Source of the DNA: Alphaproteobacteria bacterium
GTDB lineage: Bacteria; Pseudomonadota; Alphaproteobacteria; Rs-D84
Assembly: GCA_017443235.1 (NCBI GenBank)
Contig: JAFSOV010000014.1
Span: 1,867 to 65,866 of the forward strand
Length of the DNA: 64,000 nt
Direction: 5' to 3'
Shown: piece after piece, positions 11,982 through 62,900 of the stretch
Layout of the letters: each line of letters begins with the position of its first letter
How positions within the stretch are numbered: position 1 is the stretch's first letter
Translations under genes and position numbers: made by a program
The notes under the pieces: generated by a model
What the model was told of the DNA's origin: nothing
What the model saw: the letters and a program-made list of their open reading frames with translations, nothing else
Databases searched by the model: none

Positions 11982-12012
11982 AAAAAAACTGGGGCGTTCC
12001 GCCCCGGTTTTT
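11982..12012. terminator. Bidirectional terminator between lpxB and the 12011 gene
   Basis: Stem GGGGCG / CGCCCC with a 3-nt loop. A-run upstream and T-run downstream. Confidence 0.6.
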
Positions 12013-18879: not shown

Positions 18880-18882
18880 AGT

Positions 18883-20589: not shown

Positions 20590-20614
20590 TCCCCCTGTCC
20601 TTTCACAAGACTTA

Positions 20615-21094
20615 TTATAACAAAAATGCGGTTATAATCAAAGACAAAATTCCACCGATTATGAAAAAAGGCGCAAAAGGAATAAATTTCTGTTTTTTGC
20701 GATACGCCCAGGCCGCACCAAATATGCACGCCAAAACCAAACTGATGGCCAATCCCAATGGGCCACACCACAGCCCCCCAACCGCAATCAATTTTATGTC
20801 GCCCATCCCGATTGGTGTGTCGGCCCCCGGGTTGTGACGCGTTATTATGCGATCAAATATCAATCCAACCACCGCCGCCATAATGTATCCAAATGCCATA
20901 CCCATAACACCCGCGCCTATGTCATGTGGCCACGGGAAAAAGGTTGTTAAAACGGCCCCGATTATCATAAGCGGAAACAGGTACGCATCGGGAATAATCC
21001 GCCGCCGCATATCGGCCGCGCCAATCTTGTACGCCAAATAAATGGCCAATAAAATCAGCAATATGAACATCGCATAAAATATGTATAAAAACAT
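20615..21094 (-). CDS. A24-family prepilin-peptidase-like membrane protein (CpaA-like, no methyltransferase domain)
   Basis: Polytopic membrane protein, 159 aa from MFLYIF. Two Asp-containing motifs typical of the family: RRIIPDAYLFPL and IGMGDIKLIAVGG. Confidence 0.72.
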   Translation of the reverse strand: MFLYIFYAMFILLILLAIYLAYKIGAADMRRRIIPDAYLFPLMIIGAVLTTFFPWPHDIGAGVMGMAFGYIMAAVVGLIFDRIITRHNPGADTPIGMGDIKLIAVGGLWCGPLGLAISLVLACIFGAAWAYRKKQKFIPFAPFFIIGGILSLIITAFLL

Positions 21095-21170
21095 TATTTC
21101 CCCCTTGCGTTTCGAATCGGTTTTATGATACACTTATCATATCATATAAAGTGAATAAGGTTTATAGAAA

Positions 21171-39500: not shown

Positions 39501-42500
39501 GTCACATTCTCGTGTCAGAATCAGGCTGGTGATGGTTCGGGAACCCCAAGCCCGGCAACAGTTCAGATACATGATGGCGAAACATTAACATTCCCATCAC
39601 TTTCAAACTGTTCGTGGGGTAATGCGGGATATAGTCCATTTTTGTGGGGTTATGTTGTAAATGGCAGTTTTGTAGAAACTCATGATGCGGGTGACACGAT
39701 AACATGGGATTCTGGTTGGGGAAATCGCACATTTAATGTGTGGTATGCGCCAAATTATTTCAATTATGAATATTCCTGTGGTGCCGGGTCCGGAACGCCG
39801 CCGGCATCCGGAAATACATATTATCATAATGGTGGATGGACAACCGCGGCAAATACATGTACGCTACCGGCGAATAAGCATTTTGTCGGGTGGTTGGAAC
39901 CTGTGTCAAATGAGGTATGGGCGGAAAGCACCACGCCAACAAATGGTTGGCGGTGGCCATACGATGTGACGGCCGCGGCCGGTGGCGCGTTTGTTGCACA
40001 ATATGACGATGATACATATACGGCGACATTTACATGCGAAAATAACGCATTTTCGCCATATGTGTACAGTGGAACCGCGCCAGACGATATAACGGATATC
40101 GCGTATCAGCAGACGATTACCCTGCCATCGCCATCTGTGTGTACAAATAATTATCCGGACGCGGGTTGGATTGCTTCGCCGGCACAGGAATGGAATTATT
40201 ACTGTGTTGATGCCAATAATGGGGCTGCCTTGGGTGGTGGCTCCGCCGGTGCAGGATCTTGGACATGGCCAAAACAAGGTAATTGCACATTCCAGGCATC
40301 CGGTGGACGCAGTATATATCATATTTATTATTATTGCGATGATACAACAAGTACGGTTTCATTGGATCAAACCGTTGATTATTCAAATCGTGATACGGTG
40401 CGCCCGGCAACTGTCGCGGTCGCCGGATGCACTGCGCCAACGGGGTATCATTTTACCGGATGGAAGGTTGGTGCGACCAATACAATTTTATCGCCCGGGC
40501 AATATGGTGGCAACAATGCCCTGTGGCCGTATGCCGCACATACGCATCTGCGTGCCCAGTGGGAGGCAGACACATATAACCTGACCTGGGGTTGTGGCGA
40601 TGGAACCGGGACGCCGTCCGGCGCATCGTTCCCGACAAGTATAGATTATGGCGAAACACTGACATTCCCGGCAAATACGGTATGTTCCGCGCCGATGGGG
40701 TATGAATTTGCCGGTTGGACCATTGATGCGAATACGACAACATATCAACCAAACGGGACATTTGTGTGGAACCTGACATCGGGCAGCGAGATAAACGCTT
40801 CGTTCACACCAATAACATATACGATAACATATGACTGTAACGGTGGAACCGGTTCGCCGTCAACGCAAAATGTGACCTATGGTGGTTCGATTCAATTGAT
40901 TTCTACGGACGCGTGTACCCGGGGTGGTTATACGGCGAACGGTTGGGATGTTTCGGGGACATCGCCGGTTGTTAACTATGCATCCGAGGCGGTGGTAAAT
41001 CCGTGGCCATATGCGGCAAACAAAACGCTAAGTGTTAATTGGACCGCCAGAACATATACGATAACGTATTACGATGAAGATGGTACGACCGTATTGACGG
41101 GATTGAACCCGACCAGTTATACATATGGTACGGGTGCAACAATAAATGCGGTTCCAACCAAGGCATATTCGGTGTTTAATGGTTGGTGTACAACACGCAA
41201 TGCGACAACAGGTACGCTTTCTGGGTGCCAACCGACAACAAATCCGCATGTTATTGGAACAACAGAAACCGACAACAAGGCATACTATGCCAGTTGGTCT
41301 TGCGCAACCGGGTACCGAAAATATAACTATGCAGTAGACAGTTTTTTGTATCCATCGGGTGGCGGACAAATTCCGGCGGGTTCGTGCGCCCCGATTCGTT
41401 ATATTATAAATTGCCATGGTAATGGTGGAAACGCATGTTTGGAACAGTTTAACCTGGGGCAATCTGGGACGGTTGGTACATACAGTTTTGGAAGTTCGTA
41501 TAACACCATTGCCATCAATTCCACGGGCAGCGATATAAGCGCAGTACCATTGCCTGTATCTAATAATGGTAATGTGGAACCTGTTTGGCCGTTCTTGTTT
41601 ACCAAAAGTCCGGATGCAAATTATACGGCCTTTACACCGTGGCCCGCCAATGGCCTGGTCAGCAGCAGTGTGCAATCAGGTTATCTTAGTCATAACTATG
41701 TGACATTTATGCAGGCGGTTGCCAACGAATCGTATAACAACGGTATAGATTTTGGTCGTCCGCATTATACATTTGACGGTTTGTGGACCGCGGCAGATGG
41801 TGGAAACAAATATATTGGTGCCGATGGTTTGTCGCCAACCGGTGGATATGCGTTTGATAGTCAAGAAATGGCAAATTTCTTTACGGCGGATGCGGATGTC
41901 TATGCGCATTGGGTGCCGGATCGTTATACAATAATGTTAGAGGCCGAAGGGTATGATGGGACATTGCCTGCGATTTATGAAACATATAACACCGGATGGG
42001 CCCAGACATCGACAGAAACACCGGGCGATTGGGTGCCGTTGACCGCGGAACAAATGGCACATCGGGCAGGATATACATTCTTGGGATATTATTCGTCTGC
42101 TTCGGGCTCGAATGCCACCAAATACATCAATGCCGATGGAACATTGGCCAATGGTGTGACGGCAACGACATTTGGCCAAAGCACGTCCATATTTGCTCGA
42201 TTCGAAGCAAACACATACAATGTGACATATGATTGCAATGCGGATGGTGCGACCGATTATACGGATACGGCGACATATGATTCTACATATACGGTATTAA
42301 GGTTGAGTGAAGCGGGATGCTCGGTCATAATTGGACATACATTTGGTGGTTGGGCGATATCCGGGACAAACCTGATTAAGAGTGGTGGCGATACGTTCAC
42401 ATGGAACTATACAGAACCCAAGACTTTAACCGCCCAATGGACGCCGAATGTTTACCATATTACATTTGATTTCAATAATAATTATACCGGTGGTGGCGCC

Positions 42501-45500
42501 CAGGTCGGTACGGCAAATATGTATGAAAAATATGGCGTTGGTTGGGGCGTGAACGAAAGTGGCGGTACCGGTTCGACATCGGGTGAATTATGGAGTGACA
42601 CCGTAATTACATTACCGCGTTATGCAGGACACACCTTTGTTGGTTATTATGATAACACTGCGGGAACCGGCACGCAATATGTTGGCCCAGATGCGCAATT
42701 GCCATCCAACAGGACCTTTGTAATGGATAAAATATTGTATGCGGTGTGGAGTGATTGTACACCGGGAAATTATTGCGATGATGGCCAGGTTATATCGTGC
42801 AGCACCGCGACAAATGGTAAATACCCGTACAGTGACGCCGGGGCAAGCAGTATAAACGATTGCTATTTAACATTAACGACCGGGAAACGTGTCGCGACCG
42901 CCGGCGCGGGTATGACCAATTGTGCCGCGAACAGTTTCAGTGACGACACAACAACGAACGTTTATTATGGTGGCACGGCATCCGCATCGCACCCCACAAC
43001 CAGTTCTTGTCCGGCCTGCTCTACACTGGGTGGTGGATTGTACGCAACCAGTGCCGGCGGCACAGGTTCAACCGGATGCTATATAACGACAACGGCGGGA
43101 AAATATGTTGTTGCAAATACTGATACCGCCCAGACAACATGCCCGGTCAAGAAATACTGTGAATCTGCAACATTGTATTGGCCGAGTGTTGGGCAAATTG
43201 CGGATTGTCCAACCCCAGACGCGTCAACAATGCGCACAACATATCCAGATAATTATTATAATGTATCAGATATATCAATTTCATGGGGGTCGGCCACTGG
43301 TGCAACATCTATATCAAAATGTAGGGCAATTTATTTTGTGACAAACGAGCGTGGTAAATTCTATCATACGCAAATAGAGTATAATCCTGTTACAGGAAAA
43401 TATGATTCTGGCAACGGGGTACAGAAATATTACACAGTTTTGAATCCGGGATATTATGGTACGGAAAAATTGTATTCGGCTTCGTATTGCAATTCTTCGT
43501 CCACGACAAGCCTTATGTATTATAAAGATGCGCAACCGTGTCCGACGGGCAGTTATTGCCCGGGCCTGACCAGTATGCCATTGTGTTCATCGGGAACATA
43601 TGAAACGACAATTGGTCTGTATTCTTGTCCGGTTGCATATCCCGACAGTGCCGCAATGTCAACCAGTATCGATGCGTGCTATTTAACCACAACGGCGGGG
43701 AACTATGTCGCAACGGCGGGTGCGGGTGAAACGCAATGCGCCGCAAACAGTTTCTGTACCGGTGGCACGGTCGTGTATTATAACGGTACCGGCGGTATCA
43801 CCGCATGTTCAACCGGCGCCGCCAGCAGTTACAGCACCAGCGCCGCCGGCAGTGACGCCGCCACAGATTGCTATAAAACCGTCACATTAAACAAAAATGG
43901 TGGTTCGGGAACGATTCAGGGAACAAGTGGAACCGACCCGGCATCCGTCACATGTTATTATAACACATCTTGCCCGTTTGGCAGTGCCGGCGGATTGCAA
44001 CAAACCGGATATACATTCACCGGCGGTTGGGGTACGTCCGCATCGTGCAGTGATACAACAACGTCCTATACCGTGCCAAACGGAACAAATACGTACTATG
44101 CATGTAAATCCCAGAAAGATTATACAATGCAATATTTGTGCAGTGATGGCACGGAAAGTGCAAACTGGAGTTTTGCCGGTACGGCACCGGTCGCAACAAA
44201 TCCGGTGCATTATGGCGACAGTGTGACAATGGCCGCCAATCCATATGGTGATCAAACCGGTTGCCGCAAAGTATGGGGAACATCCGGCGATGCAGATTAT
44301 TGTACAGATTGCTTTACGTTCGGCGGTTGGAAGATTCCAGCAGAATTTACGTCACTGGAACAAACTTTGGTACACCTGGGCGGTTCCGATGTAAATACGT
44401 GGGGTAATACAGACAGTACAGATTGGTGTATTATTGACAATACATCTGATGCGTGTACTGGATTCTCGGATGCGGTATTTTATGTTTACCCAATGTATAC
44501 TCCAAAACAATATGATATAGAATATATGTATGCGACCAGTCCGGTAAATAATAATGCGTCTATGCCGGCGGATTATACATATACCGTTGGCACCAGTATC
44601 AGCAACGCGGACCAGACCCCACCCGCACACGCCACATTTAATGGTTGGTGCACGGGCGCGAATGGAACCGGAACATGCTATAATGCCGGTCAATCCATTA
44701 CAATTGGCAATCGCGCCCATGGTGATATAACATATTACGCAAATTGGTCATGTGGTTCGGGATATACTTTGACATACGATACGAATAACCAACCGGTATG
44801 TTCGGCGGATGTGATAACGTGCGATCCGGGTTATTATTTGCAAGGTTCCAGCGCAACATGTCAACCATGCTTGGTTGGTGATTATTGCGAGGGTGGAAAT
44901 TTCGTGCATAATGGAACCGACCAAGGGTTGAAAGTATGTGCGACCGAGATTGCCACAGGTTGGACCAGTTTGGGTGGAACAGATTGCACCGCCAAGACCA
45001 GTTGTTATTATCCGGTGACATTGAACAAAAACGGATTTAGCGGAACCATAGCCGCGGGTGCCGGTACCGGATGCACGGTTGCAGCCAAATCCACGGGTAC
45101 AAATCCGGCAACATTAAGGTTATTCTATAATACCGCATGCACTTTGCCAACATTTACAACGGGTTTGACCCAGACAGGATACACCAATGCGACCACATGG
45201 TCGGAACAAAGCACGTTGAATGCAACGGCGGTTTCAACAATTGATGCCGTGACCACAACGCCCGCGGTGACGACATATTATGCGCGAAAAACTACGTGCA
45301 AGGCTAATTATTATACCCCCGATAATACAACATGTACGGCATGCAGTGGTTTGGCCGGTGGCGCATACCCCAAAAGTGCCGCAGGAACGGGTGACGCAAC
45401 CAGTTGCTATGCATCAATAACATTGAACAAAAATGGATACAGCGGAACCATATCGGCAAATGCGGGCACGGGATGTAAGGTTGCATCAAGGGCTATCGGC

Positions 45501-46385
45501 ACAACAAATGCAACGTTAAAATTATTCTATAATACCGCATGCACTTTGCCAACATTTACAACGGGTTTGACCCAGACAGGATACACCAATGCCACAAAAT
45601 GGTCCGAGTTTAATACCATAGACGCAACAACGGTCAGTACGATTCCGGCATCAACGACGGCACCCACGATAACCACGTATTATGCTCAAAAACCAAGTTG
45701 TGCTGCGAATTATTATAAAAACGATACAACAACCTGCAGTTTATGCAGCGGTTTGGGTGGCGGTTTGTACACCAAAAGTGCCGCCGGTAACAAGACCGAT
45801 AATACGGTATGTTATTCGACTGTGACCGCGGGGACATACATTGTCAATAATACAGATTCGGCCGTGACAGAATGCCCAGGTGGTTCGTATTGTATTGGTG
45901 GTAATGTGTATTGGCCGAATGTGGGTAATATTGATTCTTGCCCGGATGGTTATGATTTGGGTGACGCCGGTTTAAGTGCTCAAAATCAGTGCCAGACCAG
46001 TTGCCCGGCGGGTCAGTGTTTGCCGGTGGCGGGTGGTTCGTGTGTGGATGCGGGCGTTGGTAATTGGTCGGCCGGGGGACTTGTTGGGTATGGTTCCACA
46101 TTGGCGTGCAATGTGTGCCCGACGGGACTGACCACCATTGGGTATGGTGCCGGTGCGGACGAAGCCGACGATTGTGGACGTGTTTTGCATATGGGTGAAA
46201 ACCGGTTGTACCTGCGCGGAGCGTTCCGGACAACGCCGTCTTTGCGGGTAAAGGTCGGTGATAACGTATTCTATGGCAATATGTCAACCACATTAAAGAA
46301 TATGTCCGATGGTATAAACAAAAAATTAAGATTAAAATATAATGGTACAACATATTCGGTATATGATGACAGTGTCGGTGAATAG
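36504..46385 (+). CDS. Giant secreted surface protein (3,293 aa): InlB B-repeat / Listeria-Bacteroides repeat array plus a Cys-rich C-terminal region
   Basis: One uninterrupted ORF with signal peptide MSGFLRKICVFFMVIAACFAGVRIYA. At least 22 by-eye copies of the repeat core G-Y-x-F-x-G-[WY] ending in YA-x-W. From about aa 2080 there are CPxGxYC-type Cys modules. Confidence 0.9.
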   Translation: MSGFLRKICVFFMVIAACFAGVRIYAASTSSYYYTLNDDGAKVASVPHSWAIGSVTQLSSLPYKPGYGYGGHYTARGCSGTQVIDHTGSVQVSFNANTTLYACWYAYYPPSIVLDDAGGSGGLLYNGGCSNVVRYIYSNNNEVTVTFANHDDWARDYMEVDKSSPYTWRIGCSNNDVVTQMYNLPTRSGYAFGGYYTEQNGSGTQIIDSSGNLINAATVYNTLGNASPTTIYAYWTSNSPTWATVTINDQSATTNSQYSTLYINTNNSLSNCGGYRTGQSCTALNITSFTPPTKTGYTYGGHYTQTNGGGWQWANSSGVIQYSVSGNQTVYAKWTPKVYTVTLNHGSPTNSPAPSTVYLKYGTGWYSNSGATTPIYAMTTVPQKTNYTFGGYWTGQNGTGTRVIDSDGNFLYTTAALTALTSNATIYAYWTAATQNPTWITVTFDDNSPTNYSQYNGGRLRYLYRNTNSAISNCSGYKLSQSCNATTVTHFTPPTKGGYTYGGHYTGSTQWSDASGNILVNLSANTTVTAQWTQNSGTIYTVTLYPNGGTGSNLLIYERQNIGWYRDSGGTYQITSSIFNSTSSGGAGLTQPTYTNHVFNGYWTGKTADGATSCSGTQMIDANGNILASPSYDASQRWYACWVGQQSTVTLNANGGTACATTSVTATYGAQMPTLSCAPTAPTGHHFNGYFDATSGGTQYYYADLSSARNWDKTGAQTLYAQWVANTYIVKYYCDKEEYELGTPAATDTVTYGQTYVVKTRAQVGCSLASGKKFIGWDYGEGNANLWQPGDIITYNYTDDLDVSGYVMDINTVTLNHGSPDNSPAPNTVYYVTSDGWYSDSNATIEATVSPIPVKYGYDFLGYWTTATSGGTQVVDASGQFITTTVTEPTTIYARYSEKTYQIALDDQNATTAGAPTPLYYSISNGWSATSGGTTITQITTAPTKSGYVFNGYWTQTGGNGTKIINSDRTFATVPSAILQAMHDGEIDMLYADWLTVNTVTFSCQNQAGDGSGTPSPATVQIHDGETLTFPSLSNCSWGNAGYSPFLWGYVVNGSFVETHDAGDTITWDSGWGNRTFNVWYAPNYFNYEYSCGAGSGTPPASGNTYYHNGGWTTAANTCTLPANKHFVGWLEPVSNEVWAESTTPTNGWRWPYDVTAAAGGAFVAQYDDDTYTATFTCENNAFSPYVYSGTAPDDITDIAYQQTITLPSPSVCTNNYPDAGWIASPAQEWNYYCVDANNGAALGGGSAGAGSWTWPKQGNCTFQASGGRSIYHIYYYCDDTTSTVSLDQTVDYSNRDTVRPATVAVAGCTAPTGYHFTGWKVGATNTILSPGQYGGNNALWPYAAHTHLRAQWEADTYNLTWGCGDGTGTPSGASFPTSIDYGETLTFPANTVCSAPMGYEFAGWTIDANTTTYQPNGTFVWNLTSGSEINASFTPITYTITYDCNGGTGSPSTQNVTYGGSIQLISTDACTRGGYTANGWDVSGTSPVVNYASEAVVNPWPYAANKTLSVNWTARTYTITYYDEDGTTVLTGLNPTSYTYGTGATINAVPTKAYSVFNGWCTTRNATTGTLSGCQPTTNPHVIGTTETDNKAYYASWSCATGYRKYNYAVDSFLYPSGGGQIPAGSCAPIRYIINCHGNGGNACLEQFNLGQSGTVGTYSFGSSYNTIAINSTGSDISAVPLPVSNNGNVEPVWPFLFTKSPDANYTAFTPWPANGLVSSSVQSGYLSHNYVTFMQAVANESYNNGIDFGRPHYTFDGLWTAADGGNKYIGADGLSPTGGYAFDSQEMANFFTADADVYAHWVPDRYTIMLEAEGYDGTLPAIYETYNTGWAQTSTETPGDWVPLTAEQMAHRAGYTFLGYYSSASGSNATKYINADGTLANGVTATTFGQSTSIFARFEANTYNVTYDCNADGATDYTDTATYDSTYTVLRLSEAGCSVIIGHTFGGWAISGTNLIKSGGDTFTWNYTEPKTLTAQWTPNVYHITFDFNNNYTGGGAQVGTANMYEKYGVGWGVNESGGTGSTSGELWSDTVITLPRYAGHTFVGYYDNTAGTGTQYVGPDAQLPSNRTFVMDKILYAVWSDCTPGNYCDDGQVISCSTATNGKYPYSDAGASSINDCYLTLTTGKRVATAGAGMTNCAANSFSDDTTTNVYYGGTASASHPTTSSCPACSTLGGGLYATSAGGTGSTGCYITTTAGKYVVANTDTAQTTCPVKKYCESATLYWPSVGQIADCPTPDASTMRTTYPDNYYNVSDISISWGSATGATSISKCRAIYFVTNERGKFYHTQIEYNPVTGKYDSGNGVQKYYTVLNPGYYGTEKLYSASYCNSSSTTSLMYYKDAQPCPTGSYCPGLTSMPLCSSGTYETTIGLYSCPVAYPDSAAMSTSIDACYLTTTAGNYVATAGAGETQCAANSFCTGGTVVYYNGTGGITACSTGAASSYSTSAAGSDAATDCYKTVTLNKNGGSGTIQGTSGTDPASVTCYYNTSCPFGSAGGLQQTGYTFTGGWGTSASCSDTTTSYTVPNGTNTYYACKSQKDYTMQYLCSDGTESANWSFAGTAPVATNPVHYGDSVTMAANPYGDQTGCRKVWGTSGDADYCTDCFTFGGWKIPAEFTSLEQTLVHLGGSDVNTWGNTDSTDWCIIDNTSDACTGFSDAVFYVYPMYTPKQYDIEYMYATSPVNNNASMPADYTYTVGTSISNADQTPPAHATFNGWCTGANGTGTCYNAGQSITIGNRAHGDITYYANWSCGSGYTLTYDTNNQPVCSADVITCDPGYYLQGSSATCQPCLVGDYCEGGNFVHNGTDQGLKVCATEIATGWTSLGGTDCTAKTSCYYPVTLNKNGFSGTIAAGAGTGCTVAAKSTGTNPATLRLFYNTACTLPTFTTGLTQTGYTNATTWSEQSTLNATAVSTIDAVTTTPAVTTYYARKTTCKANYYTPDNTTCTACSGLAGGAYPKSAAGTGDATSCYASITLNKNGYSGTISANAGTGCKVASRAIGTTNATLKLFYNTACTLPTFTTGLTQTGYTNATKWSEFNTIDATTVSTIPASTTAPTITTYYAQKPSCAANYYKNDTTTCSLCSGLGGGLYTKSAAGNKTDNTVCYSTVTAGTYIVNNTDSAVTECPGGSYCIGGNVYWPNVGNIDSCPDGYDLGDAGLSAQNQCQTSCPAGQCLPVAGGSCVDAGVGNWSAGGLVGYGSTLACNVCPTGLTTIGYGAGADEADDCGRVLHMGENRLYLRGAFRTTPSLRVKVGDNVFYGNMSTTLKNMSDGINKKLRLKYNGTTYSVYDDSVGE
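45003..45806 (+). repeat. In-frame tandem duplication (2 x 402 nt) inside the giant gene
   Basis: The units start at 45003 (CYYPVTLNKNGFSGT) and 45405 (CYASITLNKNGYSGT). A stretch of about 70 nt is identical between 45119..45190 and 45521..45592. Confidence 0.85.
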
Positions 46386-54547: not shown

Positions 54548-55039
54548 ATGAAAAAACTGTTAGTTGGTTTAATGGGGATGTTTGCGGCGGGAAAATCTTT
54601 CGCAAACCCGGCCTGTGCGGTGTGCACGATTGCCATTGGTGCAACATTATCTATATCCAGAAAACTTGGGGTTTGTGATAATGCGGTTGCAATTTGGGTT
54701 GGCGCATTTTTGGTTTTGATGGGTTATTGGCTTATCAAATGGTTTGATAGGAAAAATTGGCATTTCTGGGGTCGCGATATCATTTTAATATTATTGTCTT
54801 TTTCAATGATTGCGGGGCTGTATATCAAGCATTTAACATATAATCAGTGTTATTGGATAATTGATGCGTTTTTGTTCTGGGCCATGGTTGGTGGGGCGAT
54901 TTATATTCTGTCGCAAAAGTTATATGAATTTATGAAACGTCGCAACAATAATCATGCACATTTTCCATTCGAGAAGGTTGTCTTGGCCTTGGTTATGTTA
55001 TTTATTGCCAGTTTTATTGTTGCCAAATTGGCCGCATAA
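54548..55039 (+). CDS. Small polytopic membrane protein, function unknown
   Basis: 163 aa with about 4 hydrophobic spans and an N-terminal CAVC motif. Confidence 0.6.
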   Translation: MKKLLVGLMGMFAAGKSFANPACAVCTIAIGATLSISRKLGVCDNAVAIWVGAFLVLMGYWLIKWFDRKNWHFWGRDIILILLSFSMIAGLYIKHLTYNQCYWIIDAFLFWAMVGGAIYILSQKLYEFMKRRNNNHAHFPFEKVVLALVMLFIASFIVAKLAA

Positions 55040-55057
55040 GTTAAAAGGAGAAAACAA

Positions 55058-55633
55058 ATGAAAAAAATGTCTTTGGAAGAAATGGTAAAAAAAGTTGATG
55101 AATCCAAAAAAGTGAATCCGTTGGATTTGTCTTCGGACCAAGATTTGTCGATTGCGTTGATGAACTTGGTGTCATTGGAAGAACATTTCTTTTTCAGTGG
55201 TGCAAAAACGAAACAGCCGGGATTTTACGATTTAATAAACGTTGTGCGAAATATGCGCAAAGAATTGATGGAACGTGTCGTTGATAAATCCGGCAAACAG
55301 GGTAACGAAGTTTGGTGTATATCAAAACATTTGTTGGCGGCATCTATGCGTCTGTACGAGGTTGGAACCAAGGCATTGGGCGCGGGAAATAAAAAAGACG
55401 CATACAAAATGTTTGAAAAGGCTTATGAGTTATATTCTCTGTTCTGGGGATTGAATATGAAAATGATAGACCTTAGTGGGGTTCAGGAAATGGAACCTGA
55501 ATTTTATGGCGCCGTTATGGACAAAGATGCGAAAAAATCAAAAGATGTAAAAAAAGAAATGGTTGAATCGCGCTCGGCCGTCCAGAAATTGGGCGATTGG
55601 GTCAAAAAAACGGTGAATTGCTGTATAGAATAA
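55058..55633 (+). CDS. Hypothetical helical protein
   Basis: 191 aa with RBS AAAGGAG, Lys/Glu-rich, ending in the C-terminal CC pair (NCCIE). No known motif. Confidence 0.6.
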   Translation: MKKMSLEEMVKKVDESKKVNPLDLSSDQDLSIALMNLVSLEEHFFFSGAKTKQPGFYDLINVVRNMRKELMERVVDKSGKQGNEVWCISKHLLAASMRLYEVGTKALGAGNKKDAYKMFEKAYELYSLFWGLNMKMIDLSGVQEMEPEFYGAVMDKDAKKSKDVKKEMVESRSAVQKLGDWVKKTVNCCIE

Positions 55634-55691
55634 AAAAACAGGTTGATTCAAATTTGGAATTTTTACTATAATCGCAATCGAAGGGAGTGAA

Positions 55692-58067
55692 GTGTTAAGG
55701 ACGAAAGAGATTTTTTCTTGGTTTTGTGCCTTTTTGGCAACGGTTTTTGTCGGTGTGTCCTATGCGGTCCAGGCGCCCAATCCGCGTGCGGTCGAATCGG
55801 AATCTGCACCGCGTCAGGTCAAGACCGATACCCAGTCGCGTCGTGCGACCGCGTCACCGACACGTATCCGCATAATTGGGCCGACGCGCGTAAATGCCAA
55901 TGGTGGGCGCAGTGCGACAACATTGACCGCCGTAAGGGTTGATGCCACGAATGCGCGTGCAAATTCTTCTACGCGCAGTGCGGTGCCGGCCGCGCGCGCG
56001 CGCAGTACCAAGTCCGGCACAACAAATGCGCGTGCGGGTGCAAAAGTTGCATCGGGCCCCAAAGGCGTGGCGCGCAGTGCGACCGCCCGTGCCACCGCGG
56101 TATATAATGATGTTAGCAAGATTGGTGGCGGATATGCCGAATGTCGCGAATCGTATGCAACGTGTATGGATCAAATGTGTGCAAACGCCAATGAAACATA
56201 TCGCCGGTGTTTTTGCAGTGACCGTTTCACAAAATTCCGTGATATAGAAAATTCTTTGGACCAGGCAATGATTCTGTTGCAACAATTCCAAGACAATAAC
56301 TTGAACGTGGTTGATAAAACCGCGGCCGAGGTCGAGGCGATGTATTCCCCGACCGTGGGTGAATTGGCAATTAAAAAAGACACCAGTGCCGCCGCCAAGG
56401 CGTTGGATGCAATCAATGATTTGTTGTCGGGGAAATCGTCTTCATCATATTCGTCTTCATCGGGTTCTTTGGGAATATTGGACTTGGATTTCACCACAGA
56501 TTTTGATGATATTTGGTCAAACGATGTTGGTTCCATATTTTCGTCCAGTGGTACAGATATGTCCACGTTGGAAGGCACGGCATTGTTTAACGCGGCACAA
56601 AATCAATGCGTGCGTTTAACCCAAAATAATTGCAGCAGTGACGCCATGTTTTCTATGTCGCGCAGTTCGTATAATATTTTGATAACCCAAGATTGCAATA
56701 TATATGAAAAGAATTTGAACAAGAAACGCGAAACCGTGGCCCAGGCCGTTCGTACGGCCGAAAAATACTTGCGCGAGGCACGTTTGGAAGAATATCGTTC
56801 GCATAATTCTGCGGACGTGAACGAATGTATTGCCAAGGTTCGTGATGCAATTTTGGCGGACACCGCGTGCGGTGCGAACTATAAACGTTGTTTGGACCCG
56901 ACCGGGGCATATATCAATGGTGCAACGGGTGAACCGATTTACAGTCCGCGGTTGTTCAAATTGGACGAAACAATCACGTTAAGCGGGGATGTTAGTGGCG
57001 ATGTGTTGCAACAAAACCCCAGTTATGATAAATATTTAGAAAATTATCGTAAATATGTGACGCGCGAATTGGATACATGTCGTGATATTGCGGATTTTGT
57101 TTGGACAGAATTCAAACGGAATGCGATTATCGAAATTGCCCAATCGCAAAGTGCAAAAATAGAAGAAGTGAAATCGTCCTGCGTTGATACGATGGCGGAA
57201 TGTTATGACACCCAAACAAACGCATTAAAGAATTTTGATAAAAACACGGCGACGACGGCCGCGGCGTTGGGTCGATATACCGCGCGCGATATGTGTCGTG
57301 AAAAGGTGGCAACCTGTGCCGCATTGTACGGTGGTGAAAATTGCCAATTTGACAGTCGGGGTAAATTAACAAATGCGGGTGCGTGCGGATTGACATCTTT
57401 GTTAAGTTATGTTGAAACCGTGGATTCTTTGAATGTTGTTGAAAAGTGTGAAACCGCCCTGCAAGAATATGTGACAAAACTGTGTACGCCCGATAATACC
57501 ACATATTCATATCCGTATAATTGTCGCAGTATGACATTCAGCGGCAGTGGCACCACCAATTTACGCGAAACGTTGGAAAATTTTGCGTTGCAGAATTGTC
57601 GTGACCCATTAAAAACAGGCGAAATAACAACCTATACCGAATTGGGTAACCAAATGCCCCAGATACGGGTACAGATTGATTCTTTGATTGCCGGGGTTCG
57701 TGACGCGTTAAGTTCATCTTTGGCCGAGGTTTGTAATGATTTGGGCGGTATGTGGGCACCACAGGTCGAACCCGGGGCTCAAGCTCAATATTTACAGTCT
57801 TTCTATAACACCGCATTTGGTGGGTATTTGCCCGACAATACGTCTGGGCGGCCCGCGGGTAAAGAGTATGGCCTTTGTTATGAAAACAGCGCGTATCTTG
57901 CGTGCCAAGAATACGAAAGATTGGGCGAAGAAAAAGATAAAAAATTCGCAGAATGGAACGAGGCAACCCAGACATGTGTGCTGTATGATGGATGGTATGA
58001 ATATAAATGCGCCGAATTGGGGACGGGATATTATATGGAAGGTGTATGTTACATCGTCGCAAATTGA
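55692..58067 (+). CDS. Large secreted Cys-rich protein; paralogue of 12011..14698
   Basis: GTG start after AAGGGAG. Signal peptide, an Arg/Thr/Ala-rich tract, then CRESYATCMDQMCANANETYRRCFCSDR. Conserved later blocks include ACGANYKRCLDP, QNPSYDKYLENY and DTCRDIADFVW. Confidence 0.82.
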   Translation: MLRTKEIFSWFCAFLATVFVGVSYAVQAPNPRAVESESAPRQVKTDTQSRRATASPTRIRIIGPTRVNANGGRSATTLTAVRVDATNARANSSTRSAVPAARARSTKSGTTNARAGAKVASGPKGVARSATARATAVYNDVSKIGGGYAECRESYATCMDQMCANANETYRRCFCSDRFTKFRDIENSLDQAMILLQQFQDNNLNVVDKTAAEVEAMYSPTVGELAIKKDTSAAAKALDAINDLLSGKSSSSYSSSSGSLGILDLDFTTDFDDIWSNDVGSIFSSSGTDMSTLEGTALFNAAQNQCVRLTQNNCSSDAMFSMSRSSYNILITQDCNIYEKNLNKKRETVAQAVRTAEKYLREARLEEYRSHNSADVNECIAKVRDAILADTACGANYKRCLDPTGAYINGATGEPIYSPRLFKLDETITLSGDVSGDVLQQNPSYDKYLENYRKYVTRELDTCRDIADFVWTEFKRNAIIEIAQSQSAKIEEVKSSCVDTMAECYDTQTNALKNFDKNTATTAAALGRYTARDMCREKVATCAALYGGENCQFDSRGKLTNAGACGLTSLLSYVETVDSLNVVEKCETALQEYVTKLCTPDNTTYSYPYNCRSMTFSGSGTTNLRETLENFALQNCRDPLKTGEITTYTELGNQMPQIRVQIDSLIAGVRDALSSSLAEVCNDLGGMWAPQVEPGAQAQYLQSFYNTAFGGYLPDNTSGRPAGKEYGLCYENSAYLACQEYERLGEEKDKKFAEWNEATQTCVLYDGWYEYKCAELGTGYYMEGVCYIVAN

Positions 58068-58101
58068 GAAAATGAATAAAACGAGCAAAAAAGGAAGGTA
58101 A

Positions 58102-59118
58102 ATGTTAAAAAACAAAATAATGGTAAGCGTGATTGCTGTGGCGGCTGGTTTTGGCCCCGCGTTTGGTGCGGCCAGTCTTAGAACCGGTGATCGCGCAGGC
58201 AGCCTTAGGGTGACACCCGCGGTGACAACGGTCAAGACGGGTGGGACGGGTACGGCAACGACCACGACGAATACCGCGACATCGCTGTCGGGTGGGCGTA
58301 TGGCGACTTTGCCGGGGCCAACCAACATCAGCACTAAACCCAAACTGCCATCGTCGGCATCGGCGGCATCGGTTGCGGATTTGAAAAATAAACTGGACCA
58401 ATTGGCCCAAGAAATCAGTGATTTGGCGAATGCCGGCGTTGACGAAGGTGCGGTTCGGGATATTATAGATTCTGAATTGGCCGGCAAAAATTATGCGACC
58501 GTCCCGTATGTTGATACGGCCGATAGCGCAAAATTAGACACGGATGAATTTGCCAATAAATTCGATACACGTGTGACGGAAAAACAGCTGGTTGATGAAA
58601 CCGCGTTGGCGGCCCATGCATATACCAAGCCCGAGGTTGATGGTATTGTTGCGGCGATAAAACCGTCTGCGGCGATAAGATATGATGAATCAACCGGGGA
58701 TTTGCAATATCAAGATTCCAATGATTCATGGACAACGTTTGCGAATAAGAGCGATTTCGCAGGCACGGATGGTAAAAACATCGAATTACAAAAAACGGAC
58801 AATGCTATTCAATGGCGTGTCAAGGGTTCAGGGGAAAATTGGCAGGATTTGGTTTCTTTGGACGAAATTACCGGTGCCACGGGCACGACCGGTGCGGATG
58901 CGTGTGAACCTAAATATTCGTCGGCAATCACCGCGGATGGCGATACGCGTGTCACGATAACCTGTGTGAATGATGATACCAAGGTTTTGGGTCAATACAC
59001 AGTGTCCAAGGGCGCGGATGGCGCAATCCCATGTCCGGGCGGCATAGAATTAGAACAAGATACGGCGTATTCTGGGGCGGATGGTGCCACCAAGTACGAT
59101 CTTGTCTGCAAGGAATAA
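58102..59118 (+). CDS. Secreted fibre-like protein with phage-tail-fibre-type motifs
   Basis: 338 aa with signal peptide and an Arg/Thr-rich tract. Contains a coiled-coil, YVDTADSAKLD, and the GTDGKNIELQKTDNAIQWRVKGSGENWQDLVSLDEITGATG motif. A Cys module follows, and the protein ends KYDLVCKE. Confidence 0.8.
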   Translation: MLKNKIMVSVIAVAAGFGPAFGAASLRTGDRAGSLRVTPAVTTVKTGGTGTATTTTNTATSLSGGRMATLPGPTNISTKPKLPSSASAASVADLKNKLDQLAQEISDLANAGVDEGAVRDIIDSELAGKNYATVPYVDTADSAKLDTDEFANKFDTRVTEKQLVDETALAAHAYTKPEVDGIVAAIKPSAAIRYDESTGDLQYQDSNDSWTTFANKSDFAGTDGKNIELQKTDNAIQWRVKGSGENWQDLVSLDEITGATGTTGADACEPKYSSAITADGDTRVTITCVNDDTKVLGQYTVSKGADGAIPCPGGIELEQDTAYSGADGATKYDLVCKE

Positions 59119-59162
59119 AAACAAATAAACAAACAATAATTTAGGAACAAAAGGAAGCAAAA

Positions 59163-60434
59163 ATGAAAACAAATAAAATAATCTTTTCTGGAATCTGTGC
59201 AACGGTTGCAATGTTGATTGGTGCAAATGCGCATGCAGATCGTGTCATCGGCAGCATCGTTGTGGAACGTGGTCCCCAGGGTGTGCCGGGTGTGGGTATT
59301 ACATATCGCGGTGAAGTCGCAGATTGTAACGAGTTGGCCGGCCTGACCGGTATGGTCCAAGGTGATGCATACTATAACCGTGAAGAAGGTTTGTTATATA
59401 TCTATAATGGTACATCGTTCCCGACATGCCCGGGCGGTGGTGTTCCGTTCAAGGGTGAACAGGGTGAACAAGGACCCCAAGGTGAACAAGGACCGGCCGG
59501 TCAAACATGCGCGATTACCGCAGAAACCGCCACTACAACCGTTGATGGCAAAGATGCGGTTAGAACGACCATGAAAAACAGTTGTACAAATGAAACAATT
59601 GGTTCGTTCACGGTGGCAAACGGTGCCGATGCCGAGGACCCATGTGTACCAACATTTACAACGGCGCACAATGCGGCAACACATAAAACGACCGCACAAT
59701 ATACATGTGGTTCAACCAGTCAATCATTTGAAATCCCGGATGGCGTTGGTGTTTGCGATGATGTTGCAAATGCGGCAACGGCGGTAAAAACATATACCAA
59801 GACATATACCGCGCCAACGGCGACCGCGGCGGGTTATGTGGCGTTACAACAAACGATGTGCGACGGTGGCACCAATACCACCAATTACCAGGATACGTGT
59901 ACGCCGATTATTTCATCCAACAAAGATATTTGCAGTGGCAACGGCGGGACATATATGGAATGCACACGCCAAGATACCGGTGCGGCGTATAATATCTGCA
60001 AGGCAATAACCACAGAAAACGCCAGTGCAATTTCTACGGCAATCAGCACTGCACAAACCGCGGCGGAAAATGCGGCCACTGCGGCAAGTGCGGCACAATC
60101 AACGGCGGACAATGCCCAATCAACCGCAAACACAACCGCGAACAAGGTTGATAATGAAAACACCGGGTTGGTGGCAACATACAGCTTGGCATCCCAGGCG
60201 AACACTGGTCTGGCCAACAAGTTGTCCAAAAACGTCACGTTCGCCGAAGAAACGGTCGATGGGGTGCTCTCATATGTATTAAAAGAAGGCAACACCACGG
60301 TCGCGGTTTTGGCCGCCAAAGAAGACCTGAAAGGTGACCCGGGTGACACGCCGTGCAGTGATATTCAGGTTGTAAAAAATACTTCTGCAAGTACAGAAGA
60401 GGCAGCGCAATATGATGTAATCTGTGTCGAGTAA
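59163..60434 (+). CDS. Secreted collagen-like / tail-fibre-like protein
   Basis: 423 aa with signal peptide, then ADRVIGSIVVERGPQGVPG and GDAYYNREEGLLYIYNGTSF. G-X-Y run GEQGEQGPQGEQGPAG, a Cys module, an Ala/Ser/Thr-rich stalk, ending QYDVICVE. Confidence 0.82.
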   Translation: MKTNKIIFSGICATVAMLIGANAHADRVIGSIVVERGPQGVPGVGITYRGEVADCNELAGLTGMVQGDAYYNREEGLLYIYNGTSFPTCPGGGVPFKGEQGEQGPQGEQGPAGQTCAITAETATTTVDGKDAVRTTMKNSCTNETIGSFTVANGADAEDPCVPTFTTAHNAATHKTTAQYTCGSTSQSFEIPDGVGVCDDVANAATAVKTYTKTYTAPTATAAGYVALQQTMCDGGTNTTNYQDTCTPIISSNKDICSGNGGTYMECTRQDTGAAYNICKAITTENASAISTAISTAQTAAENAATAASAAQSTADNAQSTANTTANKVDNENTGLVATYSLASQANTGLANKLSKNVTFAEETVDGVLSYVLKEGNTTVAVLAAKEDLKGDPGDTPCSDIQVVKNTSASTEEAAQYDVICVE

Positions 60435-60469
60435 GGAAAGGATTGTGAAATAAATAAAAAGGAAGTCAA

Positions 60470-62392
60470 ATGTACAAAAAAATGACTTTTTGGGGCGTGT
60501 GTATGGCGCTGGCCATGGTGGTCGGTGCGCCGGCGGTCGCGGCAGATAGGGTTATTGGTAATATTATTGTGCCAATCCCATCGAACGGGACCAACGGTGC
60601 GGCGGGTGCCGATGGTGCGTCTGCATACCAGATTTGGTTAAATGCCGGCAACACCGGAACCGAGGCCGATTTCTTGGCATCATTGGTCGGTGCCCCCGGA
60701 ACAAATGGCGTTGATGGTGCGCCCGGTGCGGCGTGTGAATCAACCATTACATCGGTTGTTTGCGGACCGAACGAGACTGTAAAATGTGCGGTTCAAAGCA
60801 AGTCCGGTGTTCGTATAGCCAAGACGGATTGCAACAACGAGAATCCAACGTACGATTATGTGTATGATGGTGCGGATGGTGATGATGGTGTTGGTGTGTG
60901 TGATGGAATATCGTCTGCCAATATGAATAAAACCGTCAAGAACACAACCAGTGTTTATACGGCGGCAACGTCTTCGGCGGCCGGTTATGTGACGAATACT
61001 CGCACTATGTGTGACCTAACAACCGTCACAACCGATACGGTGCAGGACACATGCACACAAATCGTAGATACCCGTACCAGTGGCGCGTGTGACGGGGCAT
61101 ATATGATGTGCACGAATCAGACTAACAATGCAACATATTATGTTTGCAAGGCGGTGACCGGAACAAATGTTAGTTCCATAAGTTCGGCAATCAGTTCGGC
61201 ACAAACCGCGGCGGATAATGCCCAATCAACCGCAAATAACAAGGTTGACACGGCAACATTCACATCGTACCAGGCCACGGTTGCATCGACCTATGCAAAT
61301 AAAGATGATGTTTATAACAAAACGCAGGTTGATAACGCAATAAGTACTGCAACAAGCGGTCTGGCAAGCGAAACCTATGTTGATAACGCGGTTGCGAACA
61401 AGCAGGATACTTTGAGTTCTGCACAGTTGGCGGCGGTGAACAGTGGTATTACGTCAAACAATATTACAACGTATGACGGATATGCAACCACCATTGCAAA
61501 CAAGGCCGATGCGTCGGCGTTGACCACCGCAAATGGCAAAATTACCGCATTGGAAACAACGGTTGGTGATGCGTCCAGTGGTCTGGTGCAACAGGTGAAT
61601 ACTAACACCAGCGCGATTGGTGATGCGTCCAGTGGTTTGATCAAAGATGTTGCCGATGCCAAGACGGATGCGTCAAGTGCGCTAAGTACTGCAAATACGG
61701 CGTCCGCCAACGCAACCCAGGCCAAACAAGACGCGGCAGATGCCAAAACAGATGCGGCAAGCGCATTGTCCGGACTTTCGTCCAAACTGGATGCGTCCAC
61801 GGCGGCCAGTACGTATCTTAGCCAGACAAATGCAGCTTCAACATATTTGACGCAGACGAGCGCCGCAAACACCTATGCAACGCAAACGGATTTGTCGAGC
61901 GTTGACGCCACGGCGAGACAGGCGGCAAGTGATGCGTCCGATGCGGTTAGTACAGCGAATACTGCGTCAACGAATGCGTCCAGCGCGTTGACGGCGACAC
62001 AGACATTGAATACGACCGTTTATGGTGCCGCCGATGGAACCGAAACCAGAGACGGATTGACGACAATTGTAGGTAAAACTGCGTCTACCGGTTTGCGCGG
62101 TACCGTCGCAACCAATGCCTCAAACATCAGTTCGTTGAACACGACTGTGTCTGAGCATACGTCAAGTATCAGTTCGTTGGACACGACTGTGTCTGGGCAT
62201 ACGACCAGTATTTCTTCGTTGCAATCACGGGCCAGCAGTCTTGAAACCACCGTTAATGGAACGTGTACTGGACGTGGCAGTTCCGGTTCGGAAGAGTCCG
62301 GCGGTAATACCGGTGGAAGCGGAACGTGTACACAAAGTCTGGAAGATCGTATCGCGGCAATCGAGGCCAGATTGACAGCCGGTGGACTATAA
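60470..62392 (+). CDS. Secreted fibre-like protein with a long Ala/Ser/Thr-rich repetitive stalk
   Basis: 640 aa with signal peptide, then ADRVIGNIIVP. The NGAAGADGASAYQIWLNAGNTGTEADFLASLVGAPGTNGVDGAPG motif is common in tail-fibre proteins. Its Cys module is paralogous to that of the 59163 protein. Repeats include DASSGL and TTVSxHTxSISSL. Confidence 0.82.
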   Translation: MYKKMTFWGVCMALAMVVGAPAVAADRVIGNIIVPIPSNGTNGAAGADGASAYQIWLNAGNTGTEADFLASLVGAPGTNGVDGAPGAACESTITSVVCGPNETVKCAVQSKSGVRIAKTDCNNENPTYDYVYDGADGDDGVGVCDGISSANMNKTVKNTTSVYTAATSSAAGYVTNTRTMCDLTTVTTDTVQDTCTQIVDTRTSGACDGAYMMCTNQTNNATYYVCKAVTGTNVSSISSAISSAQTAADNAQSTANNKVDTATFTSYQATVASTYANKDDVYNKTQVDNAISTATSGLASETYVDNAVANKQDTLSSAQLAAVNSGITSNNITTYDGYATTIANKADASALTTANGKITALETTVGDASSGLVQQVNTNTSAIGDASSGLIKDVADAKTDASSALSTANTASANATQAKQDAADAKTDAASALSGLSSKLDASTAASTYLSQTNAASTYLTQTSAANTYATQTDLSSVDATARQAASDASDAVSTANTASTNASSALTATQTLNTTVYGAADGTETRDGLTTIVGKTASTGLRGTVATNASNISSLNTTVSEHTSSISSLDTTVSGHTTSISSLQSRASSLETTVNGTCTGRGSSGSEESGGNTGGSGTCTQSLEDRIAAIEARLTAGGL

Positions 62393-62403: not shown

Positions 62404-62431
62404 AAATCGGTCGGGAATCCGGCCGATTTTT
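62404..62431 (+). terminator. Rho-independent terminator after the fibre cluster
   Basis: Stem ATCGGTCGG / CCGGCCGAT followed by TTTTT. Confidence 0.6.
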
Positions 62432-62486: not shown

Positions 62487-62900
62487 CTATTCTTCGCCGG
62501 CAAATGTTTTTAGCATCTTGATAATAGATGCGCGTTGGGCATCGGTTCCCAATTTCCAATAAAGACGTATCAATTCCAAACTTTCTGTGCGCAACATTGG
62601 GTCGTCTGCGTCCGGTTGATGTAAATGCATGGAACGTGTTGCCCGCGTTTCGTCCGGCATATTGCCCGGCAAACCACTAAAGAAAAAAGACACCGGCGTT
62701 TGCATCGCCGCGCCAATTTCAAATAGACGTGATGCAGATATGCGATTGTCCGCCGTTTCATATTTTTGAATCTGTTGAAATGTCACACCGCATATGTTGG
62801 CCAAATCTTTCAAAGATAGCCCCAACATTGTGCGTCGTAATTGCATACGCCGGCCGATATGTTGATCAACGATGCTTGGGATATATGTTTTGCCTGCCAT
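62487..62900 (-). CDS. XRE-family helix-turn-helix transcriptional regulator
   Basis: HTH_3-type motif LGLSLKDLANICGVTFQQIQKYETADNRISASRLFEIGAAM; 137 aa. Confidence 0.85.
   Translation of the reverse strand: MAGKTYIPSIVDQHIGRRMQLRRTMLGLSLKDLANICGVTFQQIQKYETADNRISASRLFEIGAAMQTPVSFFFSGLPGNMPDETRATRSMHLHQPDADDPMLRTESLELIRLYWKLGTDAQRASIIKMLKTFAGEE

Follow-up and report, generated by a model that had tools for sequence, protein, structure and literature searches.

Exported mosaic proteins, candidate fibrous adhesins, occupy a variable chromosomal slot in a gut alphaproteobacterium of Candidatus Enterousia

Collagen-like proteins of the Legionella Lcl, Streptococcus Scl and Bacillus BclA type serve in adhesion or as surface fibres, and they are exported proteins whose strain-variable G-X-Y runs are flanked by non-collagen domains. 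The mosaic adhesive trimer (MAT) fibres of Bdellovibrio bacteriovorus, a cell-contact-dependent bacterium, are cellular proteins with signal peptides and partly phage-tail-fibre-like parts. Their invariant cell-proximal N-terminus is joined to swappable distal parts, and their trimeric state, with meandering chains or a beta-helix, has been confirmed by structure (PMC10769870). In this study, three consecutive genes (genes 2, 3 and 4) that invite comparison with these systems were analysed together with the gene upstream of them (gene 1). They lie in a 64,000-nucleotide stretch of contig JAFSOV010000014.1 (assembly GCA_017443235.1), which is called the window below. Its source is an uncultured rumen/gut alphaproteobacterium, Candidatus Enterousia of the order Rs-D84, with a genome of about 0.9 Mb. 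The products of genes 2 to 4 resemble MAT fibres in concept, as a functional analogy, and are not members of that family. We read them as mosaic exported fibre adhesins outside any named family, and the genes themselves fill, at this locus, a variable slot that lies immediately after gene 1.

The slot was recognized by comparing related loci. A gene 1 scan of species-representative genomes gave 46 of them, all from rumen or gut metagenome-assembled genomes (MAGs) and many named Candidatus Enterousia. The backbone conserved across these loci in tblastn comparisons consists of rsmH, a 163-aa membrane protein gene, a 191-aa protein gene, gene 1 and a convergent XRE-type helix-turn-helix (HTH) gene. 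Gene 1 (55692-58067, + strand; 791 aa, GTG start) was present in all 46 loci with conserved synteny and forms the left border of the slot. The HTH gene (62487-62900, - strand; 137 aa; Pfam HTH_3, 1.6e-8) is conserved as well and forms the right border of the slot. Slot size was taken as the distance from the gene 1 stop to the HTH gene, and both borders were seen in 27 loci. The slot was empty in 11 of these closed loci (57-368 bp, no gene), held about one gene in eight (1.3-1.6 kb) and measured 3.2-9.7 kb in the other eight. Four open loci extended past the fetched 10 kb, with two genes encoding 1846-1989 aa and 1256-1475 aa. The slot proteins are therefore dispensable. The preliminary description of this DNA had treated genes 1 to 4 as one four-gene unit; this did not hold, since gene 1 is a core gene found in every related locus and genes 2 to 4 are the cargo of a slot that is often empty.

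Almost all slot open reading frames (ORFs) of at least 250 aa were on the gene 1 strand and started with a signal peptide of n-h-c layout. Two classes of slot proteins were distinguished. Class A proteins always came first in the slot, and gene 2 (58102-59118, + strand; 338 aa) belongs to them. Their N-terminal part comprises a signal peptide, the motifs AAS(V/L)R and RAGS(L/I)R, a linker rich in Ser and Thr, the motifs SRMATL.G and KPKLPS.ASAA, and a short coiled coil. Across distant species, alignment of class A proteins was limited to 110-190 N-terminal residues, and protein length ranged from 268 to 1989 aa. For gene 2, the N-terminal module of aa 1-176 (58102-58629) was the sole part that aligned in distant species, where the protein reaches 800-1989 aa; this module is a putative cell-proximal anchor. 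Class B includes gene 3 (59163-60434, + strand; 423 aa) and gene 4 (60470-62392, + strand; 640 aa), in which variable modules come after the signal peptide and a short x(V/T)IGxIxVPxG strand. In five loci (L013, L014, L015, L016 and L019), a class A protein of 1846-1989 aa was followed by a class B protein of 1256-1475 aa with 58-73 Cys, and these are far bigger versions of the two-gene layout of class A and class B.

In the more distant species, with gene 1 identity of at most 50%, the slot either was empty or contained another exported protein, which had about 400 aa and 18-24 Cys. This single unrelated exported protein of about 390-480 aa, with the motif ...GG.(Y/K)FCP.Q..., was seen in L023, L026-L029, L033 and L037. 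Its presence suggests that the slot attracts exported Cys-rich genes generally, beyond fibre genes.

Within the window, the description of four co-directional ORFs with gaps of 34, 44 and 35 nt and a single terminator at the end was confirmed by the ORF listing and a hairpin scan. Each gene had a ribosome-binding site of the AAGGAAG/GGGAG type. The sole strong terminator-like site on the + strand was a hairpin with an 11-bp stem and a T run at 62404-62429, directly after gene 4, where it ends the + strand unit; no comparable hairpin was found between the genes. Upstream of gene 1, a consensus scan gave a promoter-like site, TTGATT-18-TATAAT (55643-55672, + strand). This pattern match is a candidate promoter for gene 1 and, via read-through, for genes 2 to 4, and the gene 1 unit probably supplies the promoter of the slot. 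The N-termini of all four proteins showed the classical n-h-c layout, with a basic n-region, a hydrophobic core and A-x-A sites at residues 22-25. The proposed Sec signal peptides thus agreed with a rule-based check, were conserved in homologues and are predicted to be cleaved. The GC content of genes 2 to 4 was 0.49-0.51, compared with about 0.45. It was not accepted as a sign of transfer, because the Ala/Gly/Thr-rich composition of the proteins accounts for it.

The three slot proteins are built of different modules, and all peptides quoted for them earlier (GDAYYNREEGLLYIYNGTSF, GEQGEQGPQGEQGPAG, ASAYQIWLNAGNTGTEADFLASLVG and AIQWRVKGSGENWQDLVSLDEITG) were found in the genes to which they had been assigned, as was every quoted peptide motif. 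In gene 2, the signal peptide is followed by the N-terminal module (AAS(L/V)R...RAGSLRV...SRMATLPG...KPKLPS.ASAA plus the short coiled coil), a tail-fibre-like beta module (AIQWRVKG...W..L) and a two-Cys tip ending in YDLVCKE. Residues 1-176 and 248-338 were conserved in the gene 2 family and the middle was variable. In the PHROGs database, aa 213-272 matched phrog_19976 (1.7e-6); aa 152-256 matched the tail fibre of Erwinia phage S6.

Gene 3 begins with a signal peptide, an ADRVIGSIVV strand, a GDAYYN...LYIYNG module, G-X-Y triplets and two-Cys beta modules. These are followed by a Cys-rich block (TMCD...CKAIT), a helix rich in Ala and, at the end, a two-Cys tip with the terminus YDVICVE. The phage-tail-fibre-type module and the short collagen-like run occupy aa 35-116 (59265-59510) and matched phrog_3904, a tail fiber family, at 9.7e-9, and the region of aa 4-96 matched a Mycobacterium phage tail protein. 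The AlphaFold2 (AF2) model of gene 3 had predicted local distance difference test (pLDDT) values of 82-86 at aa 50-95. A G-X-Y run had been reported for this gene; it is present, but it comprises only about six triplets. Related slot proteins were richer in G-X-Y, with up to 17 four-triplet windows, and some homologues carried PF01391. The Cys-rich block and the start of the stalk lie at aa 198-330 (59754-60152), and the Cys positions of this central block were invariant in the gene 3 family. The segment of aa 285-345 is Ala-rich with a period of 3.5-3.6 residues, and AF2 gave aa 287-325 as a single long helix.

Gene 4 begins with a signal peptide, an ADRVIGNIIV strand, a SAYQIWLNAGNTGTEADFLASLVG module between G-X-Y triplets and a Cys-rich block. 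After these come an Ala/Ser/Thr stalk, which is about 370 aa long and has repeats of 14-18 aa, then a Cys loop rich in Gly and Ser and finally a LEDRIAAIEARL helix. The low-complexity stalk (aa 231-600; 61160-62269) had internal repeats of 42, 51 and 54 nt and a weak periodicity of 3.4-3.5 residues (p ~0.04), and the NCBIfam Ala-zipper match to it was sub-threshold. Residues 20-88 matched phrog_13286 (9e-14), and gene 4 also matched phrog_19976 (7e-12). The SAYQIWLNAGNTGTEADFLASLVG module itself (aa 39-88; 60584-60733) spans about 50 aa and is promiscuous. In an exhaustive HMMER search, it was matched by 3151 representative proteins at E<=1e-3, and a single protein had up to 28 matched stretches. 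Nearly all of these proteins matched aa 39-88 alone, and about a dozen of the representatives listed matched beyond it; no Pfam-A model matched the module in gene 4. Phages of Escherichia, Pseudomonas and Klebsiella have it in proteins annotated as tail, tail-fibre or capsid-fibre proteins. Since 50 of the 139 top matches had signal-peptide-like N-termini, the module is also frequent in secreted bacterial proteins. Many secreted bacterial proteins with this type of module begin with a signal peptide plus APQKFSYQAVVR.

The phage-tail-fibre-like modules proposed for genes 2 to 4 therefore go beyond chance, with PHROGs tail families matched at 9e-14 by gene 4, 1e-8 by gene 3 and 2e-6 by gene 2. 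The tail-fibre-type matches covered 5-31% of each of the three proteins.

Several parts are common to the slot proteins of the window. The Cys-rich block of gene 3 is paralogous to aa 144-260 of gene 4 (60899-61249), with 47% identity over 137 aa (BLASTP, E=6e-14), and the N-termini of the two proteins shared 55% identity over 31 aa (E=1.5e-6). These values support the previously described ADRVIG(S/N)I(V/I)V strand after the signal peptide and the TMCD...YxxCKA(I/V)T block of genes 3 and 4. The YD(L/V)(V/I)C(K/V)E C-terminus was likewise present in genes 2 and 3, and a two-Cys tip, PC...Y(D/N)xxCx(E/D), at the extreme C-terminus was common to the gene 2 and gene 3 families. In contrast, the Cys module claimed for genes 2 and 3 lacked statistical support. 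BLASTP gave E=0.07, a hidden Markov model (HMM) without gene 2 in its seed gave gene 2 at E=1.2, and the literal pattern matched neither gene unless an extra residue was allowed. The degenerate counterpart claimed for the window's gene 4 had no HMM match. Strong matches to the two-Cys module HMM were seen throughout the gene 3 family, and a single gene-4-like protein, from locus L006, also had one (3e-9).

The mosaic nature of the slot proteins, also part of the preliminary description, was evident from the comparison with the closest species (L002) and from module exchange among relatives. The backbone DNA was 89% identical to that of L002. The stretch of nucleotides 58649-60881, which covers the end of gene 2, all of gene 3 and the start of gene 4, was 94% identical, and the body of gene 4 was patchy and rearranged at 75-80% DNA identity. 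At the protein level, identity was 90% for RsmH, 91% for gene 1, 64% for gene 2, 97% for gene 3, 55% for gene 4 and 90% for the HTH protein. Among the relatives of gene 3, P0130, P0132 and P0133 had the SAYQIW module of gene 4 inserted, P0134 combined a gene-3 block with a gene-4-type stalk and C-terminus, and some others ended in a clearly gene-2-like tip. The relatives of gene 2 kept both ends and had a varied or duplicated middle. Within the locus, a 44-nt stretch of 89% identity links genes 3 and 4. Invertible or long repeats for phase variation were looked for in the locus, and only short direct repeats were found. The identical gene 4 protein was found on 23 public contigs with unchanged gene order.

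Compared with MAT fibres, genes 2 to 4 likewise encode cellular signal-peptide-bearing proteins with partly phage-tail-fibre-like parts, in which a conserved N-terminus is joined to exchangeable distal pieces (PMC10769870). A lifestyle dependent on contact with other cells, predicted in the case of Enterousia, is a further parallel. The signal peptides were found in genes 2 to 4 and in their homologues by the rule-based check. However, judged by the description of MAT fibres and not by the sequence of their N-domain, the three proteins do not share a beta-rich N-domain of about 130 aa. What genes 3 and 4 have in common ahead of the collagen and SAYQIW modules is limited to about ten residues (ADRVIGxIxV), and gene 2 has a different, Ser/Thr-rich module at its N-terminus. 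No S74 chaperone-protease was found in genes 2 to 4 (Pfam, E<=1). The MAT NS74 subfamily likewise has no S74 domain (PMC10769870), so the absence of S74 alone does not place a protein outside the family. There was also no sequence match at E<=1 to chains of the PDB, including the MAT tips (8OKW, 8OKS and others). Collagen runs, Cys-rich modules and Ala/Ser/Thr coiled coils are the building parts of the Enterousia proteins, which are encoded by 0-3 tandem genes in one fixed slot, in contrast to the large paralogue family of 21 MATs in B. bacteriovorus. Since the MAT N-domain, the S74 domain and the tip sequence were all absent, genes 2 to 4 were not filed as MAT members.

The other described families are similar in part. 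Like Lcl, Scl and BclA, the slot proteins are exported and have variable G-X-Y runs flanked by other domains. They differ from them in the number of triplets, which is about six in gene 3 and limited to isolated triplets in gene 4, and the bulk of the proteins consists of other modules. The Lcl model scored 17 bits against 500, and Pfam Collagen was sub-threshold. With phage tail fibres, they share the SAYQIW...EADFLASLVG, GDAYYN...LYIYNG and AIQWR...W..L modules (PHROGs 3904, 13286 and 19976), a conserved N-terminus with a variable distal end, and fold matches in BFVD. They differ in the low coverage of these matches, in the signal peptides, in the fixed locus without phage genes and in having no IMG/VR relatives. 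The Ala-rich helices with 3.5-residue periodicity gave weak profile matches to the alanine-zipper trimeric coiled coils of Lpp and OprI. However, the scores were 14-16 bits against cutoffs of 23-43, the slot proteins have no lipobox and no Cys at the cleavage site, and they are much larger and multi-modular. Because the collagen, Lcl and Lpp matches were below threshold and the MAT features were absent, no membership in a named family was assigned.

The genomic surroundings bear on the question of phage origin. The window is housekeeping chromosome by Pfam annotation, with genes for trigger factor (tig), S9/L13, LeuRS, an M23 peptidase, LpxA/LpxB, GcrA, ArgRS, a two-component system, RuvB, TolR, SecA, DnaE and RsmH. 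The 10 kb downstream, read on the 332-kb contig, encode iPGM, a deaminase, a methyltransferase, L25, DnaK, PFK and a LysM protein. Neither in the 64-kb window nor in these 10 kb did Pfam annotation show a capsid, terminase, portal, sheath, baseplate or integrase gene. Scans of IMG/VR gave no relatives of the slot proteins beyond collagen repeats. The earlier proposal of a cellular rather than prophage system, with no capsid, terminase, baseplate or integrase gene, was thereby upheld over both stretches.

Against this background, three alternatives to exported adhesins for another cell were weighed. Genes 2 to 4 could be a phage-derived remnant, or off-cluster tail fibres of a prophage, gene transfer agent (GTA), tailocin or extracellular contractile injection system (eCIS). 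Local modules do match phage tail and tail-fibre families, and alphaproteobacterial GTAs encode some fibre or spike genes apart from their main cluster. However, these matches are limited to modules of 50-100 aa that are equally frequent in secreted bacterial proteins. All three proteins and their homologues have signal peptides, unlike virion fibres assembled in the cytoplasm, and their chromosomal position is fixed across the genus. Together with the absence of structural, terminase and integrase genes from the window and the 10 kb downstream and of IMG/VR relatives, this makes such an origin very unlikely. A prophage, GTA or eCIS origin was rejected on the genomic context over these two stretches and on the signal peptides. 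The proteins might instead stay inside the envelope as Sec-exported, Lpp-like coiled-coil or collagen spacers in the periplasm or at the inner face of the outer membrane. The signal peptides are of the Sec type only and no outer-membrane export signal was found; the sub-threshold matches to the Lpp/OprI alanine-zipper family and the many other exported Cys-rich proteins encoded in the window also fit such a role. Nevertheless, presence and length vary hugely between close species (0 to >10 kb; 270-1989 aa) and the tips are swapped by recombination, which are marks of exposed, selected surfaces and not of envelope spacers. The slot proteins also share modules with receptor-binding phage fibres and are dispensable, as shown by the empty slots. 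An envelope-internal function is accordingly doubtful. The third alternative accepts surface exposure and assigns another purpose: binding to mucosa or feed particles through collagen mimicry, a coat, or decoys or targets for phages. Export and hypervariability fit these roles equally well, and the collagen-like runs resemble host-binding bacterial collagen-like adhesins, although the NCBIfam Lcl model stayed at 17 bits. Binding to a microbial partner and binding to animal or plant material, a coat or a decoy role are not separable by sequence. The predicted dependence of the lineage on other cells (PMC12306168) makes cell-cell attachment the simpler explanation, and we regard a role apart from microbial partners as unlikely, though worth keeping in view.

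Several points also weigh against the interpretation of genes 2 to 4 as exported fibrous adhesins. Signal peptides were called by simple n-h-c/A-x-A rules alone. A Sec signal peptide alone leads to the periplasm, and no outer-membrane export or anchoring route was identified for genes 2 to 4. None of genes 1 to 4 was above a Pfam or NCBIfam cutoff, and sequence searches of the PDB with gene 2, gene 4, a gene 3 profile and a gene 1 profile gave no match at E<=1. In gene 3, the approximately six triplets reached 10.1 bits in Pfam Collagen (PF01391) against a cutoff of 27.2 (E=0.7). The AF2 monomer of gene 3 was weak (pLDDT 59.7; predicted template modelling score 0.25), and its Foldseek matches in the PDB were noise. 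In BFVD, a library of predicted viral structures, eight matches at E<=1e-3 were mostly phage tail, tail-fibre and tail-assembly proteins, and the matches next in rank included collagen-like and minor tail proteins; at template modelling (TM) scores of about 0.1, these matches only echo the sequence-level module matches. Furthermore, no further paralogues of genes 2 to 4 were found within the window.

On balance, genes 2 to 4 probably encode recombining exported fibrous adhesins of a partner-dependent bacterium. Such adhesins would be Sec-exported modular fibrous proteins, probably homotrimers, encoded in a recombination-prone slot with which the gene 1 transcription unit ends on its 3' side. 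The prediction of trimers is based on the collagen-type runs, Ala-zipper-like helices and phage-fibre modules, each of which is trimeric in known settings. Signal peptides, a conserved Cys pattern and hypervariability suggest surface exposure, and the proteins would have to cross the outer membrane to reach this position. The lineage-conserved N-terminus, of about 110-175 aa in class A and consisting of the short strand xVIGxIxVPxG in class B, would hold the fibre at the cell envelope, which sets the presumed orientation. The rest of the protein would be interchangeable pieces: short collagen runs, two small phage-tail-fibre modules, Cys modules, stalks and Cys-loop tips. The two-Cys and Cys-rich beta modules may be disulfide-bonded outside the cytoplasm, and the putative Ala/Ser/Thr coiled-coil stalks would differ greatly in length between proteins. 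Module exchange between adjacent paralogues and between strains would then alter how far the fibre reaches and what it binds. Adhesion to another cell or surface is the most likely role.

Gene 1 was analysed separately. In its product, a signal peptide is followed by some 120 disordered residues rich in Arg, Ala, Thr and Ser and by a mostly helical part of about 640 aa with 28 Cys, including the CMDQMC motif that represents the CMDQxC motif reported earlier. The Cys pattern, CRESY.TCMDQMC...YRRCFCS, was invariant in the family. At least 932 homologues were found; each one with a named source came from gut MAGs and was labelled only "hypothetical protein". No Pfam or NCBIfam family was above cutoff, and the PDB profile search had no match at E<=1. 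The AF2 model, made from a 38-sequence alignment, had a pLDDT of 61.1, with residues 1-145 disordered, followed by long helices and a more confident C-terminal part. Foldseek comparison with the PDB gave no meaningful match (best E 0.02 for gene 3 and 0.47 for gene 1, TM<=0.16). This is a large orphan family in which no domain or fold was recognized.

The paralogy of gene 1 to a second gene of the window (12011-14698, - strand; CMDQFC), as earlier proposed, was confirmed by BLASTP, with 30% identity over about 540 aa (E=7e-62). The 910-aa ORF of this paralogue reaches 14743, and translation probably starts at M16. The paralogue has lpxB and the gene of an exported GH108 protein as neighbours and stands alone, with no fibre genes adjoining. 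It was also considered whether gene 1, in its Arg-rich N-terminus, has an anchor motif in common with the N-terminal module of gene 2; this was rejected, because hhalign aligned the signal peptides alone. Therefore, gene 1 is treated as a separate conserved gene for an exported Cys-rich helical protein without fibre dependence, which marks the slot.

The pair of genes upstream of gene 1 (54548-55633, + strand) was defined by ORFs, Pfam and synteny. The 163-aa membrane protein (54548-55039) had two very divergent forms among the related loci. A form like that of the window, with 72-96% identity, was present in L002, L021, L023, L035, L037 and L041, and most other loci had the other form, with just 30-36% identity to the window copy. 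The distribution of the two forms does not follow gene 1 identity, which suggests allelic replacement. The 191-aa protein (55058-55633) was more conserved across the genus than RsmH, for example 83% versus 72% in L013; it had no Pfam match and no signal peptide, and its C-terminus is CCIE.

Other exported proteins were observed in the window. A giant exported protein of 3293 aa (36504-46385) has 103 Cys, is rich in Thr, Gly and Tyr, and contains Listeria-Bacteroides repeats (Flg_new, 4e-17). Its gene takes about 1% of the 0.9-Mb genome for one surface protein and is followed by that of a 225-aa protein, possibly a lipoprotein. A prepilin-type peptidase (A24; 20615-21133, - strand) lies within a group at 16984-21133 (- strand) and adjoins two exported proteins without a Pfam match, one of 568 aa with 27 Cys and one of 631 aa. 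This group may be part of a pilus or secretion system relevant to the exit of fibres from the cell. A signal-peptide-bearing protein with a GH108 lysozyme domain, a type frequent in phage endolysins, is encoded at 15485-16573, and an M23 peptidase at 6817-8094 (- strand). In a partner-dependent bacterium, such exported cell-wall hydrolases could act on the wall of another cell.

The lifestyle of the lineage gives the slot its interest. Enterousia genomes of 0.75-1.0 Mb are without a tricarboxylic acid cycle and respiration and have few standard transporters, and these bacteria have been proposed as probable symbionts or parasites that draw metabolites from other cells (PMC12306168). Enterousia and Rs-D84 are frequent in the guts of ruminants, horse, chicken and some humans, and no partner or attachment device is known for them (PMC12306168). 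This predicted partner-dependent lifestyle makes attachment to another cell the most attractive role for genes 2 to 4. As a tentative extension, to which we give clearly less weight than to the adhesin interpretation, the slot might be the partner-recognition apparatus of an obligately cell-dependent gut alphaproteobacterium, an independently evolved, lineage-specific fibre system. A conserved envelope anchor together with recombining reach and tip modules would then set which microbe or protist is attached by each Enterousia species, and gene 1, perhaps with the membrane protein and 191-aa neighbours, would be a fixed base or co-expressed partner. If this were true, the tips would offer a direct way to probe for the hosts of the order Rs-D84, which are not yet known. 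The fixed slot with its species-specific exported fibre proteins is a concrete, testable candidate for how Enterousia makes contact. The tips could be expressed to fish for partners, and the slot could serve as a strain-typing marker. Furthermore, the idea of bacteria building surface fibres of their own from reused phage-fibre and collagen modules gains an alphaproteobacterial example with this locus.

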